In this document: piece after piece, positions 39,196 through 61,857 of the stretch
Position numbering within the stretch: the first letter of the stretch is position 1
Layout: the number at the start of each line of letters is the position of its first letter
DNA from: Arcobacteraceae bacterium
Lineage (GTDB): Bacteria > Campylobacterota > Campylobacteria > Campylobacterales > Arcobacteraceae
NCBI GenBank assembly: GCA_048268245.1
Contig: JBLWVX010000001.1
Location: 138,327-202,326, forward strand
Length of the DNA stretch: 64,000 nucleotides
Reading direction: 5' to 3'
Notes under the pieces: generated by a model
Database searches by the model: none
The model's input: the letters and a program-made list of their open reading frames with translations, nothing else
What the model was told of the DNA's origin: nothing
Program-made: the position numbers and the translations under genes

Positions 39196-39591
39196 ATGAA
39201 AAGAAGAGAACCTTTAGGTTTAGACTTAACCCCAATCATAGATGTAGTTTTTATACTACTTTTATTTTTTATAGTAAGTTCTGTATTTAAAAAAGATGAA
39301 CTGGCTTTGATACTTGATTTGCCAAACTCAAATGCTAAAGAGTTAAAAGTAGATGAAGAACAAGTTTTTATAGAACTTAGTTCAAATAAACTTGCAATAA
39401 AAGGAATAGAAGTATCTTTTCAATCACTAGAAGATAATCTAAAAGCTATTGAAAATAAACATAAAGCTGTATTAGTTAGAATTGATAAAAAAGTTGAATA
39501 TCAACGAGTTGTGAAAGTTTTAGATTTACTTCAAAAATATGATTTAACAAATCTAGCACTTGTTACAAGTCAAGAAGAAAAAAAGGATTAA
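39196..39591 (+). CDS. exbD: ExbD/TolR family protein
   Basis: LTPIIDVVFILLLFFIV. Confidence 0.88.
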   Translation: MKRREPLGLDLTPIIDVVFILLLFFIVSSVFKKDELALILDLPNSNAKELKVDEEQVFIELSSNKLAIKGIEVSFQSLEDNLKAIENKHKAVLVRIDKKVEYQRVVKVLDLLQKYDLTNLALVTSQEEKKD

Positions 39592-39971
39592 TTTCCCTCT
39601 TCTTCTTTTTTTAATTGCTCATACTCTTCATCTGTAAAAATTCTAGACTTAGTTATAAACTGATAACCCATATCTATTTCAAGAGAAAAAGAGTTACCAA
39701 AAGCTGATTTTTCTTCTCTTACATCAATTGTAATAAAAGAGTGTCTAAAATATTCGAATTGGTCTTTATCTATAAAAAACTCACATCCACATATTTCACC
39801 AAGCTTTACATTTCTACTTGGCACATAAAAATCATCTTTTGCATAACACATAGGAGCTGTTCCATCACAACAACCACCACTTTGGTTAAATACTAATTCA
39901 CCATGTTCTTCTTGAAGTTTTTTGATTACGTCACAAGCTTCTTTTGTAACGTCTACTCTTTTTATTGCCAT
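39588..39971 (-). CDS. DUF779 family protein (aldehyde dehydrogenase-associated)
   Basis: QSGGCCDGTAPMCY and FSLE motifs; directly downstream of aldB. Confidence 0.9.
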   Translation of the reverse strand: MAIKRVDVTKEACDVIKKLQEEHGELVFNQSGGCCDGTAPMCYAKDDFYVPSRNVKLGEICGCEFFIDKDQFEYFRHSFITIDVREEKSAFGNSFSLEIDMGYQFITKSRIFTDEEYEQLKKEEEGN

Positions 39972-39994
39972 AATTTATCCTTTTTATATATAAA

Positions 39995-40039
39995 ACAAAA
40001 AAGGTACAGAAGGAAAAGGGAGAGAGAACCTTCTGTACC
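39995..40039 (-). terminator. Terminator hairpin with 15-nt C/U-only loop after aldB
   Basis: GGTACAGAAGG / CCTTCTGTACC stem (40003-40039); minus-strand loop UUCUCUCUCCCUUUU; followed by U-run. Confidence 0.75.
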
Positions 40040-40074
40040 ACAATAAGGGGTTTAATTAAGTTTAAAACTATCTA

Positions 40075-41571
40075 TTAAAAGAATCCTAAAGCATCTTTGC
40101 TGTAAGAAGTTAAGATATTTTTAGTGTGTCTGTAAGAGTTTAACATCATCATGTGAGTTTCTCTACCGATACCTGATTTTTTGTATCCACCAAATGATGC
40201 ATGTGATGGGTATAAGTGGTAACAATTCACCCATACTCTACCAGCTTCAATTCCTCTTGAGAATTTATGTAATTGGTGAGCATCTCTTGACCATACACCT
40301 GAACCTAATCCGTAGATAGTGTCATTTGCGATTTCTAATGCTTCTTCTTCAGTTTTAAATGTAGTTACAGATAATACAGGTCCAAAGATTTCTTCTTGGA
40401 AGATTCTCATTTTATTGTGACCTTTGAAGATTGTTGGTTGAATATAGAATCCATTTGGATATTTTTCAGACTCTAAGATATCTCCACCAATTAAACACTC
40501 AGCACCCTCTTCTTTACCAATTTTAATGTACTCAGTAATTTTCTCTTTTTGGCTTAATGAACATTGGGCACCCATCATGTTTTCAGTATCTAAAGGATCA
40601 CCTAATTTAATAGCTTTAACTCTCTCTAATACTCTTGCCATAAATGGCTCATAGATATCTTCATGGATTAATGCTCTTGATGGACAAGTACAAACTTCAC
40701 CAGAGTTAAATGCGAATAATACTAAACCTTCAATTGCTTTATCAAAGAACTCATCATCAGCATCCATAATTGAAGGCATAAAGATATTTGGAGATTTACC
40801 ACCTAATTCTAATGTTGATGGAATAATGTTTTCAGTTGCATATTGCATAATTAACTGACCAGTTGTAGTTTCACCTGTAAATCCAACTTTTTTGATGTCT
40901 GGGTGAGTTGATAAGTGTTTACCAATTTTTCCACCTGCACCATTAATAATGTTGATTGTACCTGCTGGTAATACCTCTGCAATTGTTTCCATTAATACTA
41001 AGATTGACATTGGAGTAGCTGATGCTGGTTTCATAACTACACAGTTACCTGCTGCTAATGCAGGAGCTAATTTCCAAGCTGCCATTAATAATGGGAAGTT
41101 CCAAGGAATAATTTGAGCTACAACTCCGTATGGCTCATATACTTCTTGAGAAATAGTGTTTTCATCTAAATCTGAAACAGTTCCAGACTCAGCTCTAATT
41201 ACAGATGCAAAGTATCTGAAGTGATCTACAACTAAAGGAACATCAGCATTTAATGTTTCTCTAATAGTTTTACCATTATCTAAAGTTTCAGCAATTGCTA
41301 ATGCTTCTAAGTTACCTTCAATAGCATCTGCTATTTTGTTTAATAAATTACTTCTTTCTACTACAGAAGTATGCTTAAATGATTCAAAAGCTTTCATAGC
41401 AGCTGCAACTGCTGCATCAACATCTTCTTCATTTGATCTAGGAATTCTTGTTAAAGTTTCTCCATCTACAGGTGAAATATTTTCAAAATACTCTCCACTT
41501 TTTGGAGCAAGCCATTCTCCACCAATAAAGTTCTCATATTGAGCTTTGTACTGCGGTTTACTATAAATCAT
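40075..41571 (-). CDS. aldB: NAD-dependent acetaldehyde dehydrogenase (AldB/ExaC/AcoD type)
   Basis: QIIPWNFP, FTGETTTG, LELGGKSP, GEVCTCPSR, EEIFGP, GIGRETH. Confidence 0.93.
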   Translation of the reverse strand: MIYSKPQYKAQYENFIGGEWLAPKSGEYFENISPVDGETLTRIPRSNEEDVDAAVAAAMKAFESFKHTSVVERSNLLNKIADAIEGNLEALAIAETLDNGKTIRETLNADVPLVVDHFRYFASVIRAESGTVSDLDENTISQEVYEPYGVVAQIIPWNFPLLMAAWKLAPALAAGNCVVMKPASATPMSILVLMETIAEVLPAGTINIINGAGGKIGKHLSTHPDIKKVGFTGETTTGQLIMQYATENIIPSTLELGGKSPNIFMPSIMDADDEFFDKAIEGLVLFAFNSGEVCTCPSRALIHEDIYEPFMARVLERVKAIKLGDPLDTENMMGAQCSLSQKEKITEYIKIGKEEGAECLIGGDILESEKYPNGFYIQPTIFKGHNKMRIFQEEIFGPVLSVTTFKTEEEALEIANDTIYGLGSGVWSRDAHQLHKFSRGIEAGRVWVNCYHLYPSHASFGGYKKSGIGRETHMMMLNSYRHTKNILTSYSKDALGFF

Positions 41572-41644
41572 TTTTCATCCTTTTTATTATTTTAATTATT
41601 TTGAGAAAATTATTTGCTATGCCATAATTTTTCTGCTTGATGAA

Positions 41645-41698
41645 AGTTTACACGAGAAATATAGCGTGAATTTAGCCTAAGTATAGCCTGAATATAGC
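41645..41698 (-). promoter_or_regulatory. aldB promoter with four 11-bp-phased GCTAWA repeats
   Basis: Plus-strand TATAGC 41660, TTTAGC 41671, TATAGC 41682, TATAGC 41693; -10 TAAACT (41650-41645) 9 nt away. Confidence 0.8.
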
Positions 41699-41790
41699 AA
41701 TGTAGTTTTTTGACACAAAATCCCTAAAAATGGTGCTTTTATTACCTTTTTTTTCTTTGTTTTTTTTGATTTATTTGCTACAATTTTTTT

Positions 41791-43707
41791 ATGAAAACAT
41801 ATAACTATACAATTAAAGACGAATCTTTAGAACTGTTAATAGACTTTGACACTTTAAAAAAAGAAAAAAACATATTAATACAAATTTTTTGTGGTCAATC
41901 AAAAGAAATTATGAAAACTATTCTAAATAAATTGAAAAAAGAACTTCCTCAAGCAATTTGTATTGGCTCATCTACTGATGGAGAGATAGACAATGCAAAT
42001 ATTTCTACAAAAAGAACAGTAATATCTATATCAGTATTTGAAAAAACTCAATTAAAAGTAGCCTATGTACAAAATGACAACTCTTATATAAATGGTCAAA
42101 AACTAGCAAAGCAGTTATGTAATGAAGATACAAAACTACTTATTACATTTACTGATGGTGAAACTACAAATGGGGAAGAGTTTTTAAAAGGTATAAGCTC
42201 TATTAATAGTAAAGTAGTTGTAAGTGGTGGAATGGCAGCAGATAATGCAACCTTTAAAGAAACATTTATTTTATGTCAAGATAAGATTATTACAAAAGGT
42301 GCAGTTGCTGTATCTCTTAACTCTAAAGATTTAAAAATTTGTAATGCTTATAACTTTAACTGGTCACCAATAGGAATAGATCATGAAATAGAAGAAGTTA
42401 AAGATAATAGGGTTTATAAAATCTCAGGATTAACACCTTTAGACTTTTATGAAAAATATTTAGGTGAATATGTTGCAAAAGCCTTACCTGCAACAGGAAT
42501 AGAGTTTCCTTTAATTGTACAAAAGAATGGAATGCCACTAGCTAGAGCTGTAATTCAAAAACATAGTGATGGAAGCTTAAGTTTTGCAGGTAATTTAAAT
42601 AAAGGGGATATTGTAAAGTTAGGCTTTGGTAATGTTGAGCTTATAATGAACAACCCTTTACAATCTTTATTTAATAAGTGTTCAGTAACAGGTGTTGAGT
42701 CATTTTTTATCTATACTTGTATGGCAAGAAGAAGATATATTCCTGATTTAATTGATATTGAAATTAAGCCATTTTCAGAAATTGCAAATACATCAGGATT
42801 TTTTACATATGGAGAGTTTTATCATAATGATGGGCACAATGAGTTATTAAACCAAACATTAACAGTTGTTGGACTTAGTGAAAATAGTGAAATAACTTAT
42901 GAAGAAAAAGAAGAAGTAGAAGAAAAAAATGACAATGATGATATAAGTGAACAAGCAAGAAGCTTACAAGCTTTAACACATCTAATTGAACAATCTTCAA
43001 AAGATTATAGTAATCAATCTAAGAAGTTAGAAGAAGGAAATAGATACGCTCAAAATTTGCTTGAGTCACAAAAACAGTTTTTAAAATATACAATTCATGA
43101 AACAAATACTCCCCTTTCAATTATTATGGGGAATATTGACATGTATGAAATTGAGCATGGAAAAAACAAATATTTATCTAATATTGAAGTTGCTATGAAA
43201 AATGTTTTTAGTATTTACGATGATTTAAGTTACTTAGTAAAAAAAGATCATGTAAATAAAGCAACACATGAAATAAACTTAGTTGATTTTGTAAGAAGTA
43301 GAATTGAGTTTTTTACTCAAACTGCCCTAAAATTTAAATCAACACTAAATTTTATTCATAATATTGATGAAATAAATATAAGTTTCAATGAGATTAAACT
43401 TCAAAGAATAGTTGATAACAATCTTACAAATGCAATTAAATATACATTACCAAATGAAACTATATATGTAAAGCTTATATATAGAAATAATGAGTGTGAC
43501 TTTATAATTGAGAGTCGTTCAGTTCAAATACTAGAACCTCAAAAGATTTTTGAAGAGTATTATCGAGAAGAAGAATCAAAAGATGGTTTTGGACTTGGAC
43601 TAAATCTTGTAAAAAGAATTTGTAGTGAAGAAAATGTTGGAATAAAACTAGAGTCTGGTGAAAACTGGGCTTCATTTACTTATACATTTAAAGGAATTGA
43701 AAAATGA
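41791..43707 (+). CDS. Cytoplasmic FIST-N/FIST-C domain histidine kinase
   Basis: IGSSTDGEI, GGMAAD, W.PIG, C.ARR, GFFTYGE, LNQT (FIST); IHETNTPLS H-box; NAIKY; GFGLGL; no TM segments. Confidence 0.88.
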   Translation: MKTYNYTIKDESLELLIDFDTLKKEKNILIQIFCGQSKEIMKTILNKLKKELPQAICIGSSTDGEIDNANISTKRTVISISVFEKTQLKVAYVQNDNSYINGQKLAKQLCNEDTKLLITFTDGETTNGEEFLKGISSINSKVVVSGGMAADNATFKETFILCQDKIITKGAVAVSLNSKDLKICNAYNFNWSPIGIDHEIEEVKDNRVYKISGLTPLDFYEKYLGEYVAKALPATGIEFPLIVQKNGMPLARAVIQKHSDGSLSFAGNLNKGDIVKLGFGNVELIMNNPLQSLFNKCSVTGVESFFIYTCMARRRYIPDLIDIEIKPFSEIANTSGFFTYGEFYHNDGHNELLNQTLTVVGLSENSEITYEEKEEVEEKNDNDDISEQARSLQALTHLIEQSSKDYSNQSKKLEEGNRYAQNLLESQKQFLKYTIHETNTPLSIIMGNIDMYEIEHGKNKYLSNIEVAMKNVFSIYDDLSYLVKKDHVNKATHEINLVDFVRSRIEFFTQTALKFKSTLNFIHNIDEINISFNEIKLQRIVDNNLTNAIKYTLPNETIYVKLIYRNNECDFIIESRSVQILEPQKIFEEYYREEESKDGFGLGLNLVKRICSEENVGIKLESGENWASFTYTFKGIEK

Positions 43708-44363
43708 AAATATTACTTTTAGAAGATGATATTATGTTAAATGAGATGATTACAGAATATTTAACTTCAACTGGTCATTCTATTACTAATACAACAAAAG
43801 GTGACGAGTGTCTAAATATTTTAGAAGAAGAAAAGTTTGATTTATTAATACTTGATATAAATGTACCAAATATTGATGGATTAACTGTTTTAGAGCAATT
43901 ACATGAAAAGAAAAGAATGATACCAACTATATTTATATCAGCACTTATTGATATTGAAGATATTGATAGAGCCTTTAATATAGGTTGTCATGATTATCTA
44001 AAAAAACCTTTTCACTTAAGAGAGCTAACACTTAGAATAAATAAAATTCTAAAAACAAATATTGCTCCACAAAAACATAAAAGGTTATCAAAAAACTATA
44101 GTTTTGATGCAGAGACTATGACTTTATATTTTAATAATGAGCCTCATATCTTACCTAAAAGACAACTTCAAATTATTGAATTACTAGCTCATAATAGAAG
44201 CTTAGTTGTACAATACGATATGTTTAGAACCTATGTTTGGAATGATGATTTTATAGACAATGCGACAATTAGAGCAGAAGTAAATAGAGTAAAAAAAGTT
44301 TTAAAAGAAGACTTTATTAAAAATATTAGAGGAAGTGGTTATATGGTTGAAAGACCAAACTAA
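43704..44363 (+). CDS. OmpR-family response regulator
   Basis: LLEDD, LDINVP, KPF...EL..RI, C-terminal winged helix I.NIRGSGY; overlaps the kinase stop. Confidence 0.92.
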   Translation: MKILLLEDDIMLNEMITEYLTSTGHSITNTTKGDECLNILEEEKFDLLILDINVPNIDGLTVLEQLHEKKRMIPTIFISALIDIEDIDRAFNIGCHDYLKKPFHLRELTLRINKILKTNIAPQKHKRLSKNYSFDAETMTLYFNNEPHILPKRQLQIIELLAHNRSLVVQYDMFRTYVWNDDFIDNATIRAEVNRVKKVLKEDFIKNIRGSGYMVERPN

Positions 44364-44372
44364 CCCTTACTT

Positions 44373-45242
44373 CTAAAACTTAATAGATACATAAAAGCTT
44401 AAATCAAACTCATTATCATCACTTAGAAAGTTGTTTTTTCTATACTCCACATAAGATGGTTTTGTTGTTGTTTCAAACTCACTTCTAGGTAACCATTCAT
44501 GATAAACCCAATGAATAAACTTTAAAACATCCCCATGTACTCCTTGCAAATCAAATCTAGCATAAACTCCATCAGCTATTTTAAAGTCAGGAAGTCTATC
44601 ACTTTTTACCTCTTCCTTTGTTTCAAGACAAGCAATATATTGACAATCATTTAAAGGAGTTATTGAAGGGTTATCATGAAAAAGCGCAATCTCTTTATAC
44701 TCTTTTATATCATTTGATAATCTCCAAACTTGCATTTTCTGCCACGCTTGTTTTATATTTATGTTATAACCCCTATTTCTAATATAGTATGCTTTTCTAA
44801 AAGGCATCTTTACAATGGTTGGTGTTATTTCATTAAAATTAGCTTTTGACTCCATGGCTTTGGGTGACTGTTGTAAAATATTGTTAGAGTATTCTTTATA
44901 TCCACCCTTTTTCCATTGTTTTGGAGTCATTTCAAATCTCTCTTTAAAAGTTTTAATAAAAGATGATTGAGAGGAGTATCCACACTCATTTGCAATTTCA
45001 GATATTGTTGAATATTTATTTGTAAGAAGTAAATTAGATGCTTTTTGTAATCTAATAGATTTGATACTCTCATAAATATTTTTTCCAAATGCTTCTTTGA
45101 ATATTCTATGCATATGAAATTTACTAATATCTAAATCAATACTAAGCTCTTCTATATCGATGTTTGTTTCAATATGAGTATAAATATAAAACATTATATC
45201 ATTGGCTATTTTTGTTCTTTTTTGTAGTGTCTCTTTTTTCAT
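44373..45242 (-). CDS. AraC family regulator with GyrI-like effector domain
   Basis: SKFHMHRIFK, IANECGYSSQSSF...FKERF.MTP; C-terminal HDNP, G.YA.F, WVY.EWLP; likely start 45242. Confidence 0.9.
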   Translation of the reverse strand: MKKETLQKRTKIANDIMFYIYTHIETNIDIEELSIDLDISKFHMHRIFKEAFGKNIYESIKSIRLQKASNLLLTNKYSTISEIANECGYSSQSSFIKTFKERFEMTPKQWKKGGYKEYSNNILQQSPKAMESKANFNEITPTIVKMPFRKAYYIRNRGYNINIKQAWQKMQVWRLSNDIKEYKEIALFHDNPSITPLNDCQYIACLETKEEVKSDRLPDFKIADGVYARFDLQGVHGDVLKFIHWVYHEWLPRSEFETTTKPSYVEYRKNNFLSDDNEFDLSFYVSIKF

Positions 45243-45382
45243 AAGATAGATTATAGCACAAATAAAATATAAAAGTAGCACTAACAAACAATTTTAACAG
45301 CACTTAAAAAGAAGAATTATTTCTGAATTTTTCATACAATAACTACAATTCAAATATAAGTAAGTATTTTAGGAAGAAAATT

Positions 45383-46039
45383 ATGGACTTAAATAAACAA
45401 ATGAATTTAGTTTTGCAACAATGTGAATCTATTAATTTACAAAAATTAAAATTAGATACACTACTAATTATTGTTCATCATCTACTAAGTGATTATAAAA
45501 AAATGCAATTACCAAAAGATGAAAAAGAAACAAAGTTTATTCATGACAATGTAAAAAATCTAAAAAATTATTTAGACAATAATATTGTAACAAGTGAAAC
45601 ACTTTCATATGTTTTCCAGAACCAAAATAAGTCTTCAACACTTAAAAAAATATCAACTAATTTAGAACCAATGAGGGCTTATTATAAATTCCTAACCTCA
45701 ATCTTTTCTTCCCAACTAAAGAAGGGTTCGTATTGGATTCCTGAACTACTTGCTTTTAGTTTGATTTACAGTTATAAAAAAGAGTTCGAAAAATCTTTTT
45801 GTTCATATACGTTCATTGAAAGCTTCCCTATTGAAAAGATACTAAATATCTACAATGAAAACAATATAGCAGTAAAGAAAAATATATCTCAAAAAGAGAA
45901 TATTCCAACTTGGAAAGTTAAGACAAGTTTGGATGAGATGTATGATTTATCTGAATATATGATAAAAAAGTATCTGACATACAATTTCAAAATAAATACA
46001 AAAAGAGTTTCAAAAACTAGAAAAAAAAGAAGAAGATAG
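45383..46039 (+). CDS. Hypothetical protein
   Basis: 218-aa ORF with RBS AGGA; basic C-terminal tail; no family recognised. Confidence 0.65.
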   Translation: MDLNKQMNLVLQQCESINLQKLKLDTLLIIVHHLLSDYKKMQLPKDEKETKFIHDNVKNLKNYLDNNIVTSETLSYVFQNQNKSSTLKKISTNLEPMRAYYKFLTSIFSSQLKKGSYWIPELLAFSLIYSYKKEFEKSFCSYTFIESFPIEKILNIYNENNIAVKKNISQKENIPTWKVKTSLDEMYDLSEYMIKKYLTYNFKINTKRVSKTRKKRRR

Positions 46040-46050
46040 ATTTAAATCTA

Positions 46051-53649: not shown

Positions 53650-53678
53650 AATAACTTCTCCTAAATTTTAGTTGAAGC

Positions 53679-53825: not shown

Positions 53826-54242
53826 TTATTTTACAATAAAAGTAGCTCTTTCTCTATCACTTTTAGCTGATGGAAGACCTAATGTATAAGTACCTGGTTT
53901 AATAGGGATAAAAGTAAGTTCAATTTCACCCTCATCATCAAATTCAAAACTATCAATTCCTAATGGTCTTACTTCAATATCATTGATAGATACTTGATTA
54001 ACCCAAATATTTCTAAAAAATTCAGGACCTACAATAGGCACTTCTCTTGAACCATCACTTTTTAATACTAATTTATAGTATTTACCTGCTTTTAAATTAT
54101 AAGGTTTATCTGCCAAAGTTTTACCTGCACCAATTGTAATAGGCTCTAAAGTTGTTCTTGAATGTAATAAGCCCTTTATATTTGCAAAAGCAAACTCAGC
54201 TGTTAAAATTAACATAATTGCAACTGTTAAAAATCTTTTCAT
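53826..54242 (-). CDS. Exported cupredoxin-like protein lacking copper ligands
   Basis: Signal peptide; L.AGKYY.L and ELTFIP.KPG.Y strands; acidic FEFDDEGE; no Cys, and the single His is outside the ligand region. Confidence 0.6.
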   Translation of the reverse strand: MKRFLTVAIMLILTAEFAFANIKGLLHSRTTLEPITIGAGKTLADKPYNLKAGKYYKLVLKSDGSREVPIVGPEFFRNIWVNQVSINDIEVRPLGIDSFEFDDEGEIELTFIPIKPGTYTLGLPSAKSDRERATFIVK

Positions 54243-54269
54243 TTTTTCTCCTAAATTTTAAGTTTCGAC

Positions 54270-54345
54270 ATTGTAATTAATAATTATAGCCTGAGTTTAG
54301 CGATGTTTTTTTTGCTAAACTTAGGCTATAAATCTTATGTATACT
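54270..54345. promoter_or_regulatory. Divergent promoter pair with GCTAAA-N5-GCTATA boxes
   Basis: Minus: box 54301-54285, -10 TACAAT 54275-54270. Plus: box 54314-54330, -10 TATACT 54340-54345. Both spacers 9 nt. Confidence 0.8.
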
Positions 54346-54370
54346 CTTAAAAAATTAAGAAGGAAAATAT

Positions 54371-55519
54371 ATGAGACTATTACCATTATTACTTATATTT
54401 GCAACTTTTCTAAATGCAAATATACTAGAAGTAAATATTTTATACCTAGAGCAGAAGATCAAAAAGCCACCAGTATTATCAAATGTTATAGAAGACCCAG
54501 ATGATTTAGGACTAAAAGGTGCCCAAATAGCCATAAAAGACAGCAATAAAAGCGCAAGGTTCTTAAATCAAAAATACAATTTAGTAGAGGCTATTTCTTA
54601 TAAAAAAGAAGAGCTTATTAGTGCCTATGAGAAGTTTATAAATGAAAACAATAGCTATGTTATTTTAAATGTAGAAGATGATTTATTAAAAGAACTTTTA
54701 ACAAATAAACTTGCTTCAAAGACTCTTTTTATTAATGCAAAAAGTCAAAACTCAAATCTTAGAAAGAACTATTGTCAAGATAATCTTTTACATACTATAG
54801 CAAGTAATGCTATGTTATATGATGGATTGGTACAATTTTTAGTAAAAAGAGACTTTAAAGACATCTTTTTAATTAGTGGAGAACATGAAAAAGATTTACT
54901 TATTAAAGAAGATATTAAAAGATCTATTAAAAAATTTGGTGCAAAAATTGTAGAAGAGAAAGTTTGGGATAATAATAGTGATATTAGAAGAAAAGCAAGT
55001 ACTGAATTTCCATCATTCACACAAGCTTCAAAATATGATTTAATATTACTTGCAGATTATCATGGAGACTTCGGTGAATTTATGTATTTTAATACTTGGC
55101 TTCCAAGACCTGTTGCTGGAACACAAGGTTTAACACCTGTTACATGGCATAAAGTTATTGAGGCTTGGGGAGCTGCGCAAATGCAAAGTAGATTTGAGAA
55201 GTTCTCAAATAGATGGATGCAATCTCTTGACTACTCAAACTGGGTTGCAGTTAGGTCAATTGTAAATGCACTAACTCATACAAAAACAGCAGATTTAAAA
55301 ACAAATATTAAATATATTTATTCAAAAGAGTTTGAACTTGCAGCATATAAAGGAAGAAAACTTACTTTTAGAGACTATAATGGACAATTAAGAATGCCTG
55401 TAGCATTAATTCAACCAAGAGCCTTAGTTTCAACTTCTCCACAAGTTGGATTTTTACATCCAAAAACTGACTTAGATACTTTAGGTATTGCACCATTTGA
55501 AATGGAGTGTAAAAAGTAA
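54371..55519 (+). CDS. LIV-fold substrate-binding protein of PQQ-ADH systems (PedA1-like)
   Basis: GAQ.AI.D.N...RFL.Q, LLHT, KKFGAKIV.EK.W, PRPVAGT.GL.P..WH...E.WGAAQ.Q.RF, YKG.KL.FR...GQLR, SPQ.GFLHP...LDTLG. Confidence 0.85.
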   Translation: MRLLPLLLIFATFLNANILEVNILYLEQKIKKPPVLSNVIEDPDDLGLKGAQIAIKDSNKSARFLNQKYNLVEAISYKKEELISAYEKFINENNSYVILNVEDDLLKELLTNKLASKTLFINAKSQNSNLRKNYCQDNLLHTIASNAMLYDGLVQFLVKRDFKDIFLISGEHEKDLLIKEDIKRSIKKFGAKIVEEKVWDNNSDIRRKASTEFPSFTQASKYDLILLADYHGDFGEFMYFNTWLPRPVAGTQGLTPVTWHKVIEAWGAAQMQSRFEKFSNRWMQSLDYSNWVAVRSIVNALTHTKTADLKTNIKYIYSKEFELAAYKGRKLTFRDYNGQLRMPVALIQPRALVSTSPQVGFLHPKTDLDTLGIAPFEMECKK

Positions 55520-55974
55520 TGAAAAAGCTAATACTTCTTTGTACAATGATTTGTTTTTTAAATGCAAACTACAAGATTGTCGAAAATGAAAATCTTTTTA
55601 GTGTAAAAATAGAAAATGAAAATTTCCAAGAAGTATTAGTAAACCTAAAAGATGAGATAGGTTTTCAAGGTTTTGTGATTGTACATGAACTAAATCTTGC
55701 AAAATCCACATCAAATGTAGCAAAAGCTTTAAAACAAAATGCTGTTTTAACAAATGGAGTGAATCTACTTATGTGTAAAAGTAGTTTTACTTTAGAAATG
55801 ATTCAAGAAAACCCTTCAAATATTACTTATTGTCCTTTAGGTATCTCTGTTTATGAAGTTAAAAATGAAGTTTTTATATCTTATAAGAAATATCATAAAT
55901 TAAACTTTGATGATAAGATTTTTGAAGAAGTAAATGAGAAGTTAAAAAATCTAATATTAAAGAGTTTGGATTAA
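55519..55974 (+). CDS. DUF302 family exported protein
   Basis: GF.IVHE.N, L.C......M, YCPLGISVYE. Confidence 0.75.
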   Translation: MKKLILLCTMICFLNANYKIVENENLFSVKIENENFQEVLVNLKDEIGFQGFVIVHELNLAKSTSNVAKALKQNAVLTNGVNLLMCKSSFTLEMIQENPSNITYCPLGISVYEVKNEVFISYKKYHKLNFDDKIFEEVNEKLKNLILKSLD

Positions 55975-56369
55975 TATTTCCCAAACTCTTTGTAAGTACC
56001 ATTATCTAAAAGTAAATATACTGTTTTTACTTCTTTATCATTTTCATATGAAGGAAGTGAAAGTCCCATTGAACCTTTAGGGATATTTCCTAGAAACTCT
56101 TTCATAGCTTTTGCTGGAACATTTCCTTCAAATACATAATCTTTAAAAATTGTTGTATTACATGATTGAACCTCTCTTGGAACACCAACACTATATTTTA
56201 AACCTTTTACATTTACCATTTGTACTATTTCAACTTCATCGGCTATTTTTTTCATATCATCTAACCAAGATTTAGGACAAGTACTTGTCATAGGTTGGAA
56301 AATCTGCATTTTACTCTCACTTGCAAATACTGCAAGAGCTAGCATTAAACTTAAAACTATTTTTTTCAT
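55971..56369 (-). CDS. DUF411/CopG-like periplasmic protein with altered metal ligands
   Basis: LK..VGVP.EVQSCNT....YVFEGNVPA..M..FL......GLSLP matches the DUF411 pattern SCHT...EGHVP with His to Asn. Confidence 0.7.
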   Translation of the reverse strand: MKKIVLSLMLALAVFASESKMQIFQPMTSTCPKSWLDDMKKIADEVEIVQMVNVKGLKYSVGVPREVQSCNTTIFKDYVFEGNVPAKAMKEFLGNIPKGSMGLSLPSYENDKEVKTVYLLLDNGTYKEFGKY

Positions 56370-57064
56370 ATTTCTCCTTTTAATATATTTGGGTATATCT
56401 CAAACATTTCATTTTTTACCTCATCAACTCTTCGTTGATTGGCTTTTCTGTTTGTATTATTGTCGAATTCTAAAATTGTAGTTGCAGGATTTTTTGATAA
56501 AAAGAAAATCCTATTTGAAAAGTATATTGCTTCACTTAAATCATGAGTTACTAAAACAACTTTTGGAGTAAACTTTTCACACAGTTTTAAAAACTCCTCT
56601 TTTAACTGCATAGCCGTTGGATAATCTAGTGAAATAAAAGGTTCATCTAAAAGTATAAGTTTAGGTTCATTTATAAAAGCTCTTATTAAAGCCACTCTTC
56701 TTTTCATTCCCCCTGATAAAGAGTTAGGATAGAAATCTAAAACTTCTTCTAAATTTATAAGCTTTAAAAACTCTTTGATTTTATTTTCATCTTTATTTTT
56801 TGAAACTAATAAAAGATTTTCTTTTATAGTTAACCATGGTATTAATCTATCATCTTGAAACATAAAAGATATTTCATCACTATCTTTTTTTACTTCTCCA
56901 ATATAATTATCATCTAATGATGCTAAAATATTTAAAAGTGTTGTTTTACCACATCCTGATGGACCTATTATAGATATAAACTCACTTTTTTTTAGACTTA
57001 TATTTATATCTTTTAAAACAGTTTTTTCTTTATAACTTTTGTTTTCAATACAAATTTCTAACAT
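56366..57064 (-). CDS. ABC ATP-binding protein, NitT/TauT type (LutE-like)
   Basis: GPSGCGKTT, FQD.RL.PW, LSGGMKRRVAL, LDEPF.SLD. Confidence 0.85.
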   Translation of the reverse strand: MLEICIENKSYKEKTVLKDINISLKKSEFISIIGPSGCGKTTLLNILASLDDNYIGEVKKDSDEISFMFQDDRLIPWLTIKENLLLVSKNKDENKIKEFLKLINLEEVLDFYPNSLSGGMKRRVALIRAFINEPKLILLDEPFISLDYPTAMQLKEEFLKLCEKFTPKVVLVTHDLSEAIYFSNRIFFLSKNPATTILEFDNNTNRKANQRRVDEVKNEMFEIYPNILKGEI

Positions 57065-57065
57065 A

Positions 57066-57803
57066 CTATTTCCATTTATTTATATATAAATCTATTGGTT
57101 TTAAAAATAGTTTTTCGATTAAAAGTATTACTAATACAAAAGCAAATGAATAAGCTAATATTGAAGTAATATCAAAAAACTGAAAAAACATAGAAATCTT
57201 AAAACCTATTCCATCACTTCTTCCAAGAAGCTCAACCACTAATACAATTTTCCAAATCAAAGATAAACACAGTCTTGTAGAAGCCATAATATAAGGATAA
57301 ATTTGAGGTAAAAAAACTTTGAAAAAAGTCTCTTTATTTGAAACTTTATATACTTTTGCTAATTGCATATATTTTCTATCAATTGCTTTTGTACCTTCTC
57401 TTACATTTACTATTACTATTGGAAGTTTATTTAATATTACGGCTAAAAGTGCAGCAAAATCTGTAAGTCCAAACCAAATATAACAAATAACAATTGTTAC
57501 AAGTGCTGGAATATTTAATCCAAGAATTAAAATAAAATCAAAAATATCATCTATTTTTTTAGACACTCCCATTAAAATACCAAAAACGATACCAAGTAAC
57601 ATAACTACAAAAAAACAAACAAATACTCTATATAAAGTAATTCCTAAATTATAAAGTAAATCTGAATTTATAGTATGATCATATAAACTAGTACCTATTT
57701 GAGTAATAGATGGAAAAGTCAAGCTTGATATAAAAAAAGCTGTTACTTCCCAAATACCTAAAAAAGCTATTATTGATATGATTCTAATATTTTTATTTAG
57801 CAC
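57066..57803 (-). CDS. ABC permease, NitT/TauT type (LutF-like)
   Basis: LNIPALV.I..CYIWFGL, NK.P, REG, L.WKIVLVVELLGRSDG.GF. Confidence 0.85.
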   Translation of the reverse strand: MLNKNIRIISIIAFLGIWEVTAFFISSLTFPSITQIGTSLYDHTINSDLLYNLGITLYRVFVCFFVVMLLGIVFGILMGVSKKIDDIFDFILILGLNIPALVTIVICYIWFGLTDFAALLAVILNKLPIVIVNVREGTKAIDRKYMQLAKVYKVSNKETFFKVFLPQIYPYIMASTRLCLSLIWKIVLVVELLGRSDGIGFKISMFFQFFDITSILAYSFAFVLVILLIEKLFLKPIDLYINKWK

Positions 57804-57815
57804 TTTTTACTCTTC

Positions 57816-58775
57816 TTACTTTTCAAAATTCCAAAAAGTTTTTTCATCTAAGCTTTTAGCATTTGAAAGCAAGTTTTTTCCACCCTCATTTAAAAGTATT
57901 TCAAATACTTTTTTTGAATCTTCTATATTTTTAGATGAAAACTCTTTTATTATTCCTTCTTTAAAGCCTTCCTTCAATGATAAGAAAACTTTTTCATCTT
58001 TTGCTTTCATAAGAGGTCTTATTCTATCCCACTCTTTTTCATCTGATAAAAGGATATCTTTTGCCTCATGACTAGCTTTTATAAATGAGTTATAAAGCTT
58101 TTTATTTTTTAAAGCAACATCTCTTCTAAATGTCCATCCAATTAATGAAATATCTTCTTTTACACCTAATTGTTCTAAAATATCACTCATTTGTATTAGT
58201 GCTTTTGCATCTTTTGCTTTTAGTTTTGCATTAAAATGCCAAAAATTAATAGCACTATTTAATGAACCATCTAATATCTTTTTATACAAGATAACTGGAC
58301 TTGCAAATACAGGAGTTATTAAATCTTTTAAATCTTTTCCATGCTTATATTTACTGTATGCTCTTAAAAGTAACCAACTTTTATCATAAGGTCCACCTGC
58401 AACTCCAAGCTTTTGACCCTTTAAGTCTAAAAGTGTTTTGGCATTTTGCTTTGTATATATTGTACCTGTAGCTTTTGAATATGGATAAAAAGTAAAATCT
58501 TTTCCATTTGCCCTTTGAGTATTTACCCAAAGCCAATCAGTAACTATCATATCTACAGAGTCAGCTTGTATTGCAACAGATGAAGCATTTTTTGAAGCAA
58601 GTTTTAAAACTTCTAAATCAAAACCATACTTTTTATCAAGTTTATTATATTTGATTACATCAAGTTCCCAGTTAACTGTTCCATAAGCTAAAACACCTAC
58701 TTTTAATTTATCTTCTGCATTAACATTTATAATACTTATTATTGTTATTAATAGTGCTACTAAAAATTTAATCAT
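57816..58775 (-). CDS. ABC substrate-binding protein, NMT1/TauA fold (LutA-like)
   Basis: GVL.YGTVNWELDVIK, IVTDWLWV, PYS, GVAGGP.DKSWLLL, NFWHF.AKL; likely start 58775 (RBS GGAG). Confidence 0.75.
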   Translation of the reverse strand: MIKFLVALLITIISIINVNAEDKLKVGVLAYGTVNWELDVIKYNKLDKKYGFDLEVLKLASKNASSVAIQADSVDMIVTDWLWVNTQRANGKDFTFYPYSKATGTIYTKQNAKTLLDLKGQKLGVAGGPYDKSWLLLRAYSKYKHGKDLKDLITPVFASPVILYKKILDGSLNSAINFWHFNAKLKAKDAKALIQMSDILEQLGVKEDISLIGWTFRRDVALKNKKLYNSFIKASHEAKDILLSDEKEWDRIRPLMKAKDEKVFLSLKEGFKEGIIKEFSSKNIEDSKKVFEILLNEGGKNLLSNAKSLDEKTFWNFEK

Positions 58776-58806
58776 GTATTTTTTCTCCAAAGCTTAAATA
58801 TCAAGT

Positions 58807-58892
58807 ATTGTATAGGAGTTTTATAGCATGAATTTAGCGAAAAAAGCTCTATTTTTAATCGCTATAATCAGGCTATAAAAAGTGTTTATAAT
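58807..58892. promoter_or_regulatory. Divergent promoter pair with GCTAWA-N5-GCTATA boxes
   Basis: Minus: box 58838-58822, -10 TACAAT 58812-58807. Plus: box 58861-58877, -10 TATAAT 58887-58892. Both spacers 9 nt. Confidence 0.8.
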
Positions 58893-58924
58893 TTCAAAAT
58901 CTAAAATATACAAAAGGAAGAAAA

Positions 58925-59338
58925 ATGAATAAAATACAAAAATTAGGATTAGCTACACTATTTTCAGCAGTAGTTGCATTTGGTCATGGGAGTGTTACTC
59001 CTCAAGAAGTTGATACAAAAGGTTTAGAGCCATTAGGTGAAGAGTGGTTAGATGAAAATCCATATAAAACAGATAATAAAAAAGCTGTAGAAATTGGAGC
59101 ATATGCTTATAGTGAAAACTGTGCGAGATGTCACGGTTTAAATGCAATTTCAGGTGGTATTGCACCAGATTTAAGAGCTTTAGAAGCTGGTTTTGATGGT
59201 GATGAGTGGTTTATGGAAAGAATAAGACATGGTGCTGTTAGAAATGGTAATGTTTATATGCCTCCATTTGAAGGTGTATTAAACCAAGAAGCTATGTGGG
59301 CTATTAGAACATATATCTTATCTTTACCAAAAGAGTAA
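58925..59338 (+). CDS. pedF: Cytochrome c550 (PedF/ExaB)
   Basis: HG.VTPQ.VDT.GL..LGEEWL.ENPY, NCARCHGL.AISGGIAPDLR, G.VRNG.VYMPPF. Confidence 0.93.
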   Translation: MNKIQKLGLATLFSAVVAFGHGSVTPQEVDTKGLEPLGEEWLDENPYKTDNKKAVEIGAYAYSENCARCHGLNAISGGIAPDLRALEAGFDGDEWFMERIRHGAVRNGNVYMPPFEGVLNQEAMWAIRTYILSLPKE

Positions 59339-59341
59339 GAA

Positions 59342-60208
59342 ATGAATCTGCTTAAATCAACAGTACTTATACTTTTACTTACTTTATTTGCCAATGCAAG
59401 AAGTATTGAGCATATACAAGAAAGTGGAAATGTCGTAATTGCAGTTTATGAAAATTTTCCACCTTACTCTTATGAACAGAATGGAAAACTAAAAGGTATA
59501 GATATAGAACTTGGAAAGATTATTGCAAAATCTCTTAATGTAAAACCTATTTGGTATGTTACAGGTTCTGATGAAAACTTATCTGATGATTTAAGAAATA
59601 CAATTTGGAAAGGAAATCTAATTCATAAAACAAAAGCAGATATTATGTTTAGAATTCCTTATGATTATGACTATTTAAGAATGAGAGATAAATCTACTGG
59701 TGAACTTGAAAACGAAATGGTTACAATCAAAGGACCTTACCAAAGTGAAAAATGGGTTATTGCAACTCATAAAGATATAATTCCTGAGTTTGAAACACTT
59801 GCAACTTTTGCTTATCATACAATTGGTGTTGAGTTAGATACTCTACCTGATACACACATTACAGGTTTTGCAAGAGGTTTAATTAGTAAAAATGTTAAGC
59901 ACTATTTTAAATTTGATAAAGCAATCAATGATTTTAAAAATAGAAAAATAGATGCAATTGCAGGTTTAAAATCACAATTAGAACACCTTTTAGATTATCA
60001 AAATAATAAGGATAAGTACTATATTAGTGAAGCCTTACCAAATGTTAAATCACATTGGGATTTAGCCACAGCAGTTTCTAGTATGTATAGACCATTAAGT
60101 TATCATATAGATGGAGTACTTCATAAAGCTTATAAAGATGGTTCTATCAAAAAAATATTTGAAAAATATGGGGTTGAATATATGCCTCCAATTTCAAAAA
60201 CTCAATAA
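59342..60208 (+). CDS. Quinoprotein-associated periplasmic binding protein (MxaJ/XoxJ-like role)
   Basis: AVYENFPPYS, GIDIELG..IA..L.V, DENLSDDLRN.IWKG, IGVELDTLP. Confidence 0.75.
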   Translation: MNLLKSTVLILLLTLFANARSIEHIQESGNVVIAVYENFPPYSYEQNGKLKGIDIELGKIIAKSLNVKPIWYVTGSDENLSDDLRNTIWKGNLIHKTKADIMFRIPYDYDYLRMRDKSTGELENEMVTIKGPYQSEKWVIATHKDIIPEFETLATFAYHTIGVELDTLPDTHITGFARGLISKNVKHYFKFDKAINDFKNRKIDAIAGLKSQLEHLLDYQNNKDKYYISEALPNVKSHWDLATAVSSMYRPLSYHIDGVLHKAYKDGSIKKIFEKYGVEYMPPISKTQ

Positions 60209-60217
60209 GGATTTATT

Positions 60218-60955
60218 ATGAGATTATTACTTCTATTTATTTCTACTTTGTTAATAAGTTCAAGCCTTTTTGCTAAAAACCCTATTGAATCTCCTACTTT
60301 TGGAGATTTAATAAAACAAATCATTGGTGATGAAAAGTATGTTTTTGATGATAAAAATATACAAATTAAAGTTCCGAACTTTGCAGATAATCCTGTACAA
60401 GTTCCTATTTATGTTAATGCCTCAAAAATAGAAGATGCCCAAAGAATGATTTTATTTGCAGACTTAAATCCGATTCCTAGAATTATAGATATGCAAACAA
60501 CAAAAATCCTTCCTGTGATTTCTACAAATATTAAAGTTGCTCAAGAAACCCCTCTTAGAGCCTTGGTATTAGATAGCAAAGGTACTTGGCATATTGGAAG
60601 TAAAAATATTAGAAGTAATGGTGGAGGTTGTGATGTTTCAAGTCAAGCCTCTACAAATAGTGATTTTGCAAAATTTCTAGGTAAAACAAAGGGTAAAGTT
60701 TTTGAAAAGAAAGATAGAAATAGAATCAAAGCTTCTATTTTCCATCCAATGGAAACTGGCCTAATATTTGGAAATGTTGAATTTTACATAAACACTATTA
60801 CTATAAAAAATGATAATAAACTTATTTCAACTATAAAAACTAGTTCTGCTATTAGTGAAAACCCAAGATTTATTTTTGAAGTAAAGGACAATAGTAAATT
60901 ATATAAAATAAACTTTCTTGATAATGATGGAAATAATTTTGAACTGGAACTGTGA
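60218..60955 (+). CDS. Quinoprotein dehydrogenase-associated SoxYZ-like carrier
   Basis: P.FA.NP.QVP, DLNPIP, internal GGGC (SoxY arm), HPMETGL and AISENP (SoxZ-like). Confidence 0.85.
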   Translation: MRLLLLFISTLLISSSLFAKNPIESPTFGDLIKQIIGDEKYVFDDKNIQIKVPNFADNPVQVPIYVNASKIEDAQRMILFADLNPIPRIIDMQTTKILPVISTNIKVAQETPLRALVLDSKGTWHIGSKNIRSNGGGCDVSSQASTNSDFAKFLGKTKGKVFEKKDRNRIKASIFHPMETGLIFGNVEFYINTITIKNDNKLISTIKTSSAISENPRFIFEVKDNSKLYKINFLDNDGNNFELEL

Positions 60956-61857
60956 TGAAAACTTTACTATTTATCATCACAGCTTTTATTTTTAGTTTTG
61001 CAAATGATTTTGACTATGAAATCAAACCCATAAAACTAAATGAGAACAGCTATTATGTATATGGAAAAGAAGAGTACTTTTCTAAAGAAAATGGTGGAGA
61101 TATTGCAAATAGTGCTTTTATAATCACTAAAAACTCTGTCATTTTAATAGACACAGGTTCAAGTGTTGAATATGCAAAACAGTTAAAAGAGCAAATAAGA
61201 AAAATTACAAATAAACCTATAAAATTTATTTTTAATACACATCATCATCCAGATCATTTTTTGGGTAATTATGCATTTGAAGATGCTAAAATCTTTGCTA
61301 CAGAACATACAAAAGAAGATATAAAAAACAATGGTGAATTATATATAAGTAATATGGTAAATCTTATTGGAAAAGCTGCTTATACAACAAAAGTAAAAGT
61401 TCCAAACAGTTTACTAAAAGAAAAAGAGATTATTTTAGATGGATATAAACTAAAACTTTTATATCTAGATGGACATACAAAAAGTGATGTAGCTATTTTT
61501 GATGAAAAGACAAAAATACTTTATGCTTCTGATTTAGTTTTCAACAAAAGAGCATTAGCAACTCCCCATGCAAACCTTCAAGATTGGATAAAAGCTTTAG
61601 AAAAACTAAAAACTATTGATTTTCAAATCTTAGTTGCTGGTCATGGAAAAGCATCTTTTGACAAAAAAGTCTTAGATGAAAATATCTTTTATTTAAATTA
61701 TTTGGATAAAACACTAAAAAATGCAGTAAATGAAGGCCTAGATACTTTTGAGATTTTAGAACTAGAACATCCAAAAGAACTTCAAGATTATTCTATGTTT
61801 AAAGAAGAGTTTGAAAGAAGTATAGTAAATCTATATCCTAAGTATGAGAATCAATAA
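60952..61857 (+). CDS. Quinoprotein relay system zinc metallohydrolase (MBL fold, SoxH-like)
   Basis: NGG.IAN, IDTG, THHHPDHFLGN, GHT, DLVF..RA..TPHA, GHG. Confidence 0.85.
   Translation: MMKTLLFIITAFIFSFANDFDYEIKPIKLNENSYYVYGKEEYFSKENGGDIANSAFIITKNSVILIDTGSSVEYAKQLKEQIRKITNKPIKFIFNTHHHPDHFLGNYAFEDAKIFATEHTKEDIKNNGELYISNMVNLIGKAAYTTKVKVPNSLLKEKEIILDGYKLKLLYLDGHTKSDVAIFDEKTKILYASDLVFNKRALATPHANLQDWIKALEKLKTIDFQILVAGHGKASFDKKVLDENIFYLNYLDKTLKNAVNEGLDTFEILELEHPKELQDYSMFKEEFERSIVNLYPKYENQ

Follow-up and report, generated by a model that had tools for sequence, protein, structure and literature searches.

Gene content and host of the locus

The locus described here lies in a stretch of 64,000 nucleotides from an Arcobacteraceae bacterium (GCA_048268245.1, contig JBLWVX010000001.1, positions 138,327-202,326; hereafter the window, which designates the whole stretch). 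It encodes a pyrroloquinoline quinone (PQQ)-dependent alcohol dehydrogenase of the PedH type, which is predicted to use a lanthanide, together with pqqABCDE, the cytochrome c550 PedF, an ExaC-like aldehyde dehydrogenase and its DUF779 partner, a SoxYZ-like carrier, a metallohydrolase, two ATP-binding cassette (ABC) importers and a two-component pair. The open reading frames (ORFs) of the window were scanned with Pfam and NCBIfam, the curated NCBIfam cut-offs serving as membership threshold. All of the components that a first-pass annotation had named from the sequence were recovered in these scans, at or near the places where it had put them (Table 1). The source genome (G000; G-numbers designate genomes of the family and L-numbers fetched loci) has a size of 2.68 Mb and is 99.3% complete.

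The closest public locus is that of Arcobacter sp. YIC-464, with a protein identity of 97% for the dehydrogenase and of 82-98% for 22 neighbouring genes. These values bear out the Arcobacteraceae-like (Campylobacterota) host proposed at first: the host is an Arcobacter, and the host family, Arcobacteraceae, is the one that was surveyed below. The window also encodes leuS and proS. A tRNA scan of the whole window gave no hit, no Rfam family was matched in the block, and Pfam revealed no integrase or transposase domain among the scanned ORFs of positions 35855-63964. The GC content is 0.25-0.32 in the block versus 0.23-0.33 elsewhere in the window. The absence of an integrase, insertion sequence or tRNA flank and an AT-richness equal to that of the host, both advanced by the first-pass annotation, are therefore confirmed within these scopes.

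The dehydrogenase and its predicted metal

The dehydrogenase matches TIGR03075 over model positions 4-530 with 783.4 bits (cut-off 480.05) and is a clear member of this family. Among solved structures, it scores highest with PedH (850 bits for 6zcw and 845 for 6zcv), ahead of the Ca-type ExaA (711 bits for 1flg) and of XoxF (about 340-354 bits). In the alignment of the active sites, NDGWDYDG of the window faces HDGWDFDG of PedH and NDAWDFSG of the Ca-type ExaA, so that the D-x-D motif reported earlier is indeed present (WDYDG aligned with WDFDG in PedH versus WDFSG in ExaA). The vicinal cysteine pair of the window enzyme (PCCDVINRG) aligns with the same residues of PedH and ExaA, and the stretches GGEFG and GNPAPWN, which carry the Glu and Asn ligands, are common to the window enzyme and PedH. 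As described in the available part of PMC11996626, MxaF is devoid of the Asp required for lanthanide binding, while PedH possesses two Asp essential for it. The relative scores with PedH and ExaA, the D-x-D, Cys-Cys and Glu/Asn motifs and the presence of four PedA1A2BC homologues all argue at the sequence level for the PedH/ExaF lanthanide type to which the enzyme had been assigned, and its activity is accordingly predicted, from these motifs, to be lanthanide-dependent.

The N-terminus of the dehydrogenase displays a hydrophobic segment (residues 5-25), a lipobox (LISG followed by the Cys) and then a linker rich in Ser, Asn and Thr. Based on these motifs, the enzyme is probably exported to the periplasm as a lipoprotein. 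A lipobox-like motif is found in 28 of the 50 distinct lanthanide-type sequences of Arcobacteraceae, the rest reading LISAQA-like, which is a signal peptidase I type of site. The same motif was counted in 4 of 69 Pseudomonadota sequences, on untrimmed frames where it may be spurious. TIGR03075 has a single match in the source genome, which thus contains neither a second PQQ alcohol dehydrogenase nor a Ca-type partner (PedE/ExaA) for a lanthanide switch.

Homologues of all four components of PedA1A2BC are encoded nearby. Three of them exceed the cut-off of their model, namely TIGR03863 (422.6 bits, cut-off 413.6), TIGR03866 (502 bits, cut-off 287) and TIGR03861 (344 bits, cut-off 241); the ATPase is considered with the interpretation. 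P. putida requires the PedA1A2BC transporter to grow at nanomolar La, according to the portion of PMC6839425 at hand. The second ABC importer, of the NMT1 type, was also considered as a homologue of LutAEF; this was rejected because the PedA1A2BC type is the homologue of Lut (PMC7391723 and PMC6839425, available sections). This second importer and the DUF411 protein encoded with it are placed under the shared operator described below and have homologues in several ped loci of Pseudomonadota.

Concerning the supply of PQQ, the terminator-like hairpin between pqqA and pqqB (one site versus 0.1 expected) is followed by a second perfect AT-rich palindrome. From its sequence, the hairpin looks like a partial terminator that would leave pqqA transcripts in excess.

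A probable common operator at seven promoters

The promoters of the locus share a motif made of two direct repeats with an 11-bp period (GCTAWA-N5-GCTAWA). The pattern GCTAWANTNANGCTAWA yields nine exact matches at seven island promoters, which are those of the aldehyde dehydrogenase gene, the dehydrogenase-pqq operon, pedA2-pedB-pedC, the gene of an exported 138-aa protein, pedA1-DUF302, the second ABC operon and the pedF operon. Only one further exact match exists in the whole 2.68-Mb genome. When one mismatch is tolerated, the window contains 10 matches versus 0.35 expected, and none of 100 shuffles reached this number. The suggestion of the first-pass annotation that one promoter motif ties the block together is thus well founded. 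The arrangement is strict: the proximal GCTATA is located exactly 9 nt from a TAnAnT -10-like box (TAAACT, TATACT, TACAAT or TATAAT) in 7/7 promoters, and the repeats cover about -38 to -22. In the promoter of the aldehyde dehydrogenase gene, it is the last GCTATA that is found 9 nt from TAAACT, and dehydrogenase-negative relatives display the same arrangement. Upstream of the dehydrogenase, the exact motif is present at about 80 nt in 27 of 30 family loci. At the scale of 10-kb loci, it was found in 9 of 11 from Arcobacteraceae versus 0 of 69 from Pseudomonadota.

Direct repeats near the -35 region that are bound by an OmpR/PhoB-type activator correspond to the geometry of the pho box. Like the PhoB system, the island combines a regulator made of a receiver and a winged-helix domain with 11-bp direct repeats that take the place of the -35 element and keep a constant distance to the -10 box. 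It differs from it by the repeat itself (GCTAWA), by a soluble FIST kinase versus the membrane-bound PhoR and by a regulon dedicated to alcohol and aldehyde oxidation. As part of the overall interpretation given below, the repeat is probably the operator of the OmpR-type regulator encoded in the island. The partner kinase scores 63.2 bits with the NosP model NF041558 (E 2e-17, cut-off 450) and 37.7 bits with the NahK/ErcS model NF041832 (E 1e-9, cut-off 400). Its resemblance to NosP and NahK is therefore limited to the domain type and constitutes a lead, not a membership. In P. aeruginosa, ErcS' (NahK), which is encoded beside the FIST protein NosP, is one regulator of ethanol oxidation.

The single exact match outside the island (contig 12, 37184-37200, plus strand; L111:4185-4201) is located about 26 nt upstream of a gene encoding a 338-aa pyridine-nucleotide-disulphide/flavin oxidoreductase (L111:4228-5244), and this gene may be a further member of the regulon.

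Acquired and resident parts of the island

Comparison with G056, a dehydrogenase-negative genome of the same genus, allowed us to delimit the acquired part. G056 and the window are collinear between about 31.9 kb and the gene of a 218-aa protein, which in G056 is directly followed by the aldolase gene found at 63377 in the window. Since G056 skips straight from about 46.0 kb to 63377, the acquired and variable block corresponds to about 46040-63376, pepA included, and the segment 39588-46039 is an older module that is conserved in the family. The island had initially been drawn from 39588 to 61857. Its gene content stands, but its left part (39588-46039) belongs to the family core and its right edge extends past pepA.

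The order of the resident module, with exbB-exbD, DUF779-aldehyde dehydrogenase and the divergent kinase-regulator pair, is kept in five fetched dehydrogenase-negative genomes (G002, G011, G056, G087 and G151), and DUF779 remains beside the aldehyde dehydrogenase in each of them. The operator is retained as four repeats in three of these five genomes and as a single exact match in another, and G087 has none. Orthologues of the kinase (55-76% identity) occur in many family genomes without the dehydrogenase, and those of the regulator (72-82% identity) adjoin the kinase and the operator in relatives. Neither the kinase nor the regulator turned up in loci from outside Arcobacteraceae, while the neighbourhoods of the Pseudomonadota homologues of the dehydrogenase also encode PedF, the SoxYZ-like carrier, the binding proteins, PedA1A2BC, the metallohydrolase, the 138-aa protein, the aldehyde dehydrogenase and DUF779. 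The aldehyde dehydrogenase and the two-component part were not acquired with the island. As the resident module is older than the block, the operator of this module must have been added to the acquired promoters.

This distribution also bears on the signal. Because the relatives use the kinase-regulator pair with the aldehyde dehydrogenase only, this pair more likely responds to an aldehyde or alcohol or to a redox cue than to a metal. A role of the cytoplasmic FIST kinase as lanthanide sensor was considered and appears unlikely for the same reason, as the kinase, its regulator and the operator persist in dehydrogenase-negative relatives, where only the aldehyde dehydrogenase accompanies them.

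In relatives, exbB-exbD likewise adjoins DUF779, whether or not the dehydrogenase is present, and nothing ties exbB-exbD to lanthanide uptake.

Distribution in Arcobacteraceae and Campylobacterota

The dehydrogenase was searched in 184 Arcobacteraceae genomes, one per species, and counted at E 1e-50 or better. It is present in 57 of them (55 above the cut-off), distributed over 10 of 22 genera. Two types can be distinguished. The short lanthanide type (about 590-600 aa) occurs in 52 genomes, about 28% of the species, and D-x-D is found in 51 of the 52 genes, the remaining one being a contig-end fragment that ends before the motif. Among these short-type genes, one is split into two frames and another is truncated beyond the motif by the end of its contig. 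The longer Ca type (631-648 aa), with WDFSG as in ExaA, occurs in nine genomes. Four genomes have both types, five have the Ca type alone and 48 the lanthanide type alone, the source genome included. In the four dual-type genomes (G155, G170, G168 and G156; L112-L115), the Ca- and lanthanide-type genes (WDFSG and WD[FY]DG, respectively) are 2.6-12 kb apart. These genomes are natural candidates for a lanthanide switch.

The phylum was sampled with 401 genomes, as the first-pass annotation had advised. All of the positives are Arcobacteraceae (4/23 plus the source genome), and the dehydrogenase was not found in the 377 sampled genomes of 13 other families. Since the trait is common in Arcobacteraceae, the source genome is no rarity. 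Among the named carriers, Arcobacter sp. YIC-464 possesses the D-x-D enzyme alone and Poseidonibacter lekithochrous both enzyme types; Arcobacter caeni is a further example. One of the loci comes from a metagenome-assembled genome labelled "Sulfurospirillum sp.", which the taxonomy scheme used here places in Arcobacteraceae.

Phylogeny and origin of the dehydrogenase

Two trees were computed, for which the 80 best Pseudomonadota matches were taken out of more than 590, by likeness to the query. In the FastTree phylogeny (129 rows, 128 different sequences), all 50 lanthanide-type rows of Arcobacteraceae fall in one clade with a support of 100. Its sister group, also with a support of 100, consists of four gammaproteobacterial sequences (Zhongshania, Halioxenophilus and two Stutzerimonas stutzeri), and both together branch from within the Alpha- and Gammaproteobacteria. 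The nine Ca-type sequences of Arcobacteraceae are located apart from this clade and form their own with a Rhodocyclaceae sequence. A quick IQ-TREE analysis of 59 chosen rows, 23 of them of the Arcobacteraceae lanthanide type (LG+G4, SH-aLRT support only, other rows dropped by hand), returned the same clade and the same sister with a support of 100 at both nodes, and again set this clade apart from the WDFSG sequences. The phylogeny that had been called for thus places the Arcobacteraceae lanthanide type as one clade within Pseudomonadota. Together with the spread over 10 of 22 genera and with an operator that is specific to the lineage and stands at every promoter, this topology fits the old and assimilated acquisition put forward at first. 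As members of one genus are split over both subclades of the lanthanide-type clade (e.g. G168 apart from G170 and G172), the tree suggests later exchange within Arcobacteraceae.

Table 1. Features of the island and its immediate surroundings (window positions).
Feature	Positions	Strand	Evidence and remarks
exbB-exbD	38613-39591	+	Adjoins DUF779; no tonB gene beside
DUF779 protein	39588-39971	-	PF05610 E 1.2e-36; downstream partner of aldehyde dehydrogenase; family-core module
ExaC/PedI-like NAD-dependent (acet)aldehyde dehydrogenase	40075-41571	-	PF00171 E 1e-155; NF050026 (AcaldDHExaC) 828.6 bits
Operator, four tandem 11-bp repeats	41660-41698	-	Upstream of aldehyde dehydrogenase, in the divergent aldehyde dehydrogenase/kinase intergenic region; three overlapping exact matches
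FIST_N + FIST_C (NosP-like) sensor histidine kinase	41791-43707	+	PF08495, PF10442, HisKA, HATPase_c
OmpR/PhoB-family response regulator	43704-44363	+	PF00072 E 1.6e-25; PF00486 (Trans_reg_C) E 6e-10
AraC/GyrI-like (Rob-like) regulator	44373-45287	-	HTH_18, GyrI-like
218-aa protein	45383-46039	+	No Pfam/NCBIfam match; last gene before the accessory block; conserved in L001, L005, L048, L142
pqqE, pqqD, pqqC, pqqB	46051-49104	-	TIGR02109 479, TIGR03859 99, TIGR02111 331, TIGR02108 378 bits; all above cut-off
Terminator-like hairpin between pqqA and pqqB	49160-49187	-	12-pair stem, then T run
pqqA	49198-49272	-	24 aa, Glu-x-x-x-Tyr; 36 nt downstream of dehydrogenase stop
PedH-type PQQ alcohol dehydrogenase, predicted lanthanide type, predicted lipoprotein	49309-51099	-	TIGR03075 783.4 bits
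Operator of dehydrogenase-pqq operon	51167-51183	-	Exact match; overlaps 3' end of pedC; GCTATA, 9 nt, TATACT
Homologues of pedC (permease), pedB (ATPase), pedA2 (YVTN beta-propeller)	51179-53649	-	TIGR03861, TIGR03864, TIGR03866
Operator of pedA2-pedB-pedC	53694-53710	-	Exact match
Exported 138-aa protein, predicted cupredoxin-like fold	53826-54242	-	No family match; AF2 + Foldseek
Two divergent operators	54285-54301; 54314-54330	-; +	Serve 138-aa gene and pedA1
pedA1-type substrate-binding protein, then DUF302 protein	54371-55974	+	TIGR03863; PF03625
Second ABC importer (NMT1/THI5-like binding protein, permease, ATPase) and DUF411 protein	55971-58790	-	PF09084, PF00528, PF00005, PF04214
Two divergent operators	58822-58838; 58861-58877	-; +	Serve second ABC operon and pedF operon
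pedF cytochrome c550	58925-59338	+	TIGR04494 206.2 bits (cut-off 122); CARCH haem motif
pedF, MoxJ/PedG-like binding protein, SoxYZ-like carrier, metallohydrolase	58925-61857	+	One gene block
Fused SoxYZ-like carrier	60218-60955	+	TIGR04557 above cut-off; GGGC carrier motif
Relay-system metallohydrolase	60952-61857	+	TIGR04558 above cut-off
Second, island-linked M17 leucyl aminopeptidase (pepA)	61859-63283	-	PF00883; inside the accessory block

Comparison with characterised systems

The ped system of P. putida KT2440 is the closest counterpart. Its PedH (6zcv, 6zcw) is the best solved match, with the D-x-D, Cys-Cys, Glu and Asn at the same positions. As far as the available text of PMC6839425 goes, it also shares with the island the c550 PedF, the PedA1A2BC-type transporter, the aldehyde dehydrogenase, a MoxJ/PedG-like protein and the pqq genes. 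Several differences are nevertheless evident. The source genome has no Ca-type PedE partner, the island appears to be controlled by an OmpR-type regulator with a cytoplasmic FIST kinase, through an operator that is absent from 69 of 69 Pseudomonadota loci, the enzyme carries a lipobox, pqqABCDE directly follows the dehydrogenase, and the phylum is another one. ExaA/ExaB/ExaC of P. aeruginosa (1flg) resembles the island by the enzyme family, the c550 acceptor and the acetaldehyde dehydrogenase; unlike the island enzyme, ExaA is Ca-dependent with WDFSG, and the FIST domain is fused to the kinase in the island. Finally, M. extorquens AM1 (XoxF/lut) likewise combines a lanthanide-type PQQ dehydrogenase with an ABC importer of the PedA1A2BC/LutABEF kind, the two importers being homologous per the accessible part of PMC6839425 (lut genes: PMC7391723, likewise in part). 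It differs by the low scores of the XoxF structures (about 340-354 bits), and no LutH-type receptor, lanmodulin or LanD was identified in our scans, which did not include a genome search for receptors or lanmodulin.

The biology of lanthanides has been elucidated in Pseudomonadota, Verrucomicrobiota and NC10. The novelty for Campylobacterota that the first-pass annotation had presumed is compatible with our full-text literature searches, which returned no description for Arcobacter or the phylum; the 2019 ISME J survey of rare-earth alcohol dehydrogenases (Huang et al.) fell outside their scope and may bear on this point. A survey of lanthanide-dependent PQQ dehydrogenases in the ocean (PMC11996626) contains neither Arcobacter nor any word beginning with Campylobacter or Epsilon in its text or six readable supplement files, and the same terms are absent from a 2024 review (PMC11845868). 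In the portion available of a metatranscriptome paper that mentions Arcobacter and PQQ terms, the PQQ dehydrogenases are assigned to Colwellia (PMC7284936). The genes themselves are already named by public annotation pipelines, and what is new is their recognition and the regulatory rewiring, not the sequences. We are thus dealing with a known kind of system, a PedH-type ped cluster, in a phylum for which no prior description was found. The island departs from the known systems by what appears to be another, conserved control circuit, a probable lipid anchor, a single dehydrogenase-pqq operon and two uncharacterised accessory genes.

Interpretation and alternative explanations

We propose that the locus supports a ped/exa-type periplasmic oxidation of alcohols whose sole dehydrogenase is of the lanthanide (PedH/ExaF) type, originates from a gammaproteobacterium and is under resident OmpR-type control. 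The probability of this joint reading is estimated at about 0.7. The gene content, the motifs, the phylogeny, the distribution and the architecture of the operator are read from the sequences, from which the metal dependence, the substrate and the binder of the operator are inferred. In the proposed mechanism, the dehydrogenase would be exported and probably anchored to a lipid, and would take PQQ from the co-transcribed pqqABCDE together with a light lanthanide, which the PedA1A2BC homologues would supply as in P. putida. Ethanol or other short alcohols would be converted to the aldehyde, the electrons flowing through the cytochrome c550 PedF to the respiratory chain, and the ExaC-like dehydrogenase would oxidise the aldehyde to the acid. 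As for its evolution, an ancestor within Arcobacteraceae would have taken the ped/pqq block from a gammaproteobacterium, and this block would then have been connected to a regulon for aldehyde oxidation that already existed in the family. The FIST kinase would phosphorylate the OmpR/PhoB-type regulator, which would bind the 11-bp repeats at about -38 to -22 of the seven promoters and activate them in the way PhoB acts at the pho box.

A number of observations weigh against this proposal. The extra Asp is reported to be necessary, yet not sufficient, for lanthanide use. NF050026 is the best model for the aldehyde dehydrogenase, but its 828.6 bits remain below the cut-off of 900, and the pedB-like ATPase (TIGR03864, 282.6 bits) is just under its cut-off of 302.25. 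No TonB receptor or lanmodulin was identified, although the genome was not searched for them, and neither AcsA nor isocitrate lyase nor malate synthase A or G was found above cut-off in the genome. Regarding the origin, the sister group is the nearest among the sampled sequences, and the true donor lineage may lie outside them. On the regulatory side, FIST kinases (paralogues included) are present in 173 of 184 family genomes at E 1e-40, and the kinase alone is consequently no marker of the system. No LuxR-type or PedS2/PedR2-type regulator occurs in the 22 ORFs of 39588-61857 (Pfam), the rest of the genome lying outside this search. Moreover, no hydrophobic segment was found in the kinase, which is thus cytoplasmic and cannot sense periplasmic lanthanide in the way proposed for PedS2 (PMC6839425, from the section available). 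Finally, the exact operator precedes both enzyme genes in G155, the Ca-type gene only in G156 and G170, and the lanthanide-type gene only in G168. Where the operator stands in front of both enzyme genes, the regulon cannot alone bring about a lanthanide switch, and another factor is needed if such a switch exists.

The alternative that survives best concerns the substrate, which could be a longer-chain, aromatic or algal volatile alcohol, or an aldehyde, in place of ethanol; the periplasmic oxidation may then mainly yield energy or serve detoxification rather than being a growth pathway. That AcsA and glyoxylate shunt genes were not found is in line with this view, and so are the SoxYZ-like carrier, the metallohydrolase, the second ABC importer, DUF302 and DUF411, which have no known role in ethanol oxidation. 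We nonetheless consider it doubtful, since the aldehyde dehydrogenase is nearest to the model of the acetaldehyde dehydrogenase ExaC and ackA (500 bits) is present in the genome for the activation of acetate. Such a substrate would be compatible with all the rest of our proposal. Given that ackA is present and that the glyoxylate shunt was not found, the use of alcohols as electron donor is the safer prediction, and growth on ethanol alone is less certain.

The repeat might also be bound by another protein, either the adjacent AraC/GyrI-like regulator or one encoded elsewhere. Rob/MarA-type AraC proteins act at sites overlapping the -35 region, and the AraC-like gene adjoins the regulator in the window and in L001, L005, L048 and L142. 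In addition, a paralogous FIST kinase/regulator pair (52% and 63% identity, respectively) is encoded on contig 3 of the source genome (96496-98385; L145:5838-8386, minus strand). However, the AraC gene is absent from the 20-kb loci of G002, G011, G087 and G151, of which G002, G011 and G151 keep an exact operator beside the kinase-regulator pair and G087 has none; no operator match lies near the paralogous pair in L145. Besides, identical half-sites at an 11-bp spacing would better suit a head-to-tail winged-helix dimer than a monomer with two helix-turn-helix motifs. Control by the OmpR-type regulator of the island is therefore preferred, and another binder seems improbable to us.

That the dehydrogenase, in spite of its D-x-D motif, runs on Ca2+ or on some other common metal, in an ordinary quinoprotein cluster for ethanol oxidation, could be defended by the scarcity of dissolved lanthanides in the waters of the aquatic or animal-associated habitats that the sequencing runs containing this DNA suggest, and by the Ca-type WDFSG paralogue of nine family genomes, five of them without the lanthanide type, from which lanthanide-free PQQ alcohol oxidation does exist in the family; it is nevertheless very improbable, as the enzyme is nearer to PedH than to ExaA (850 versus 711 bits) with all four ligand positions shared with PedH, D-x-D is found in 51 of 51 readable short-type genes that form a clade separate from the Ca-type ones, and the PedA1A2BC homologues are under the same operator as the dehydrogenase.

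Coming back to our proposal of a lanthanide-type ped system under resident control, a more ambitious version of it is tentative, and we would rather bet slightly against than for it as a whole. It would constitute the first lanthanide metabolism of Campylobacterota, obligate in 48 of the 57 species, with a block captured whole by an older FIST/OmpR-type aldehyde regulon of the family, whose kinase would be a fused counterpart of NosP-NahK(ErcS') responding to an intracellular signal and not to lanthanide in the periplasm, and with a cupredoxin-like protein and a PqqA-trimming M17 peptidase as undescribed accessories. If the proposal is true, rare-earth-dependent metabolism would extend to Campylobacterota and to about 28% of Arcobacteraceae species, several cultured isolates among them. 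Since most carriers have no Ca-type backup, no redundant enzyme would have to be deleted to obtain the clean lanthanide phenotype that is predicted. The locus would also be a clear natural example of an acquired multi-operon pathway brought under a resident two-component system, with seven promoters, one operator and one spacing, against 0 of 69 Pseudomonadota loci.

Accessory genes and further observations

The exported 138-aa protein has no Pfam, NCBIfam or PDB sequence match. Its AF2 model, computed with 20 homologues, is a beta-sandwich with a pLDDT of 85. Foldseek relates this model to the cupredoxin domains of copper nitrite reductases and multicopper oxidases (E about 1e-5, query TM-score about 0.53). 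The protein contains no Cys and no conserved His, and displays invariant acidic residues. Homologues with 34-52% identity are encoded in Pseudomonadota ped loci, and those of Rhodobacterales start with poly-Asp stretches. A copper-less cupredoxin-like fold is thus predicted for this exported protein. An identity with LanD or lanmodulin was rejected on the basis of the beta-sandwich model and of the absence of a PDB sequence match; LanD is a three-helix bundle according to the available part of PMC11551332.

The M17 leucyl aminopeptidase of the block comes in addition to a housekeeping copy, which is encoded on contig 54. The block including pepA is absent from G056, and the dehydrogenase-negative G002 and G059 have one M17 copy only. 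The island-type pepA, defined by a best E of 1e-148 or lower (a threshold set after seeing the data), was counted in 53 of 57 dehydrogenase-positive versus 6 of 127 negative genomes, a rough figure given that the scores show no clear gap. No PqqF was found above cut-off in the genome, and a leucyl aminopeptidase is among the genes from a lanthanide screen of M. extorquens (PMC7391723, portion available). As a guess, the island pepA may trim the PqqA-derived peptide.

Two other genes of the window are not part of the island: they encode a bifunctional ornithine-lipid synthase OlsF (839 bits; 8438-10150, plus strand) and a 1254-aa choice-of-anchor I protein (1095-4859, minus strand).

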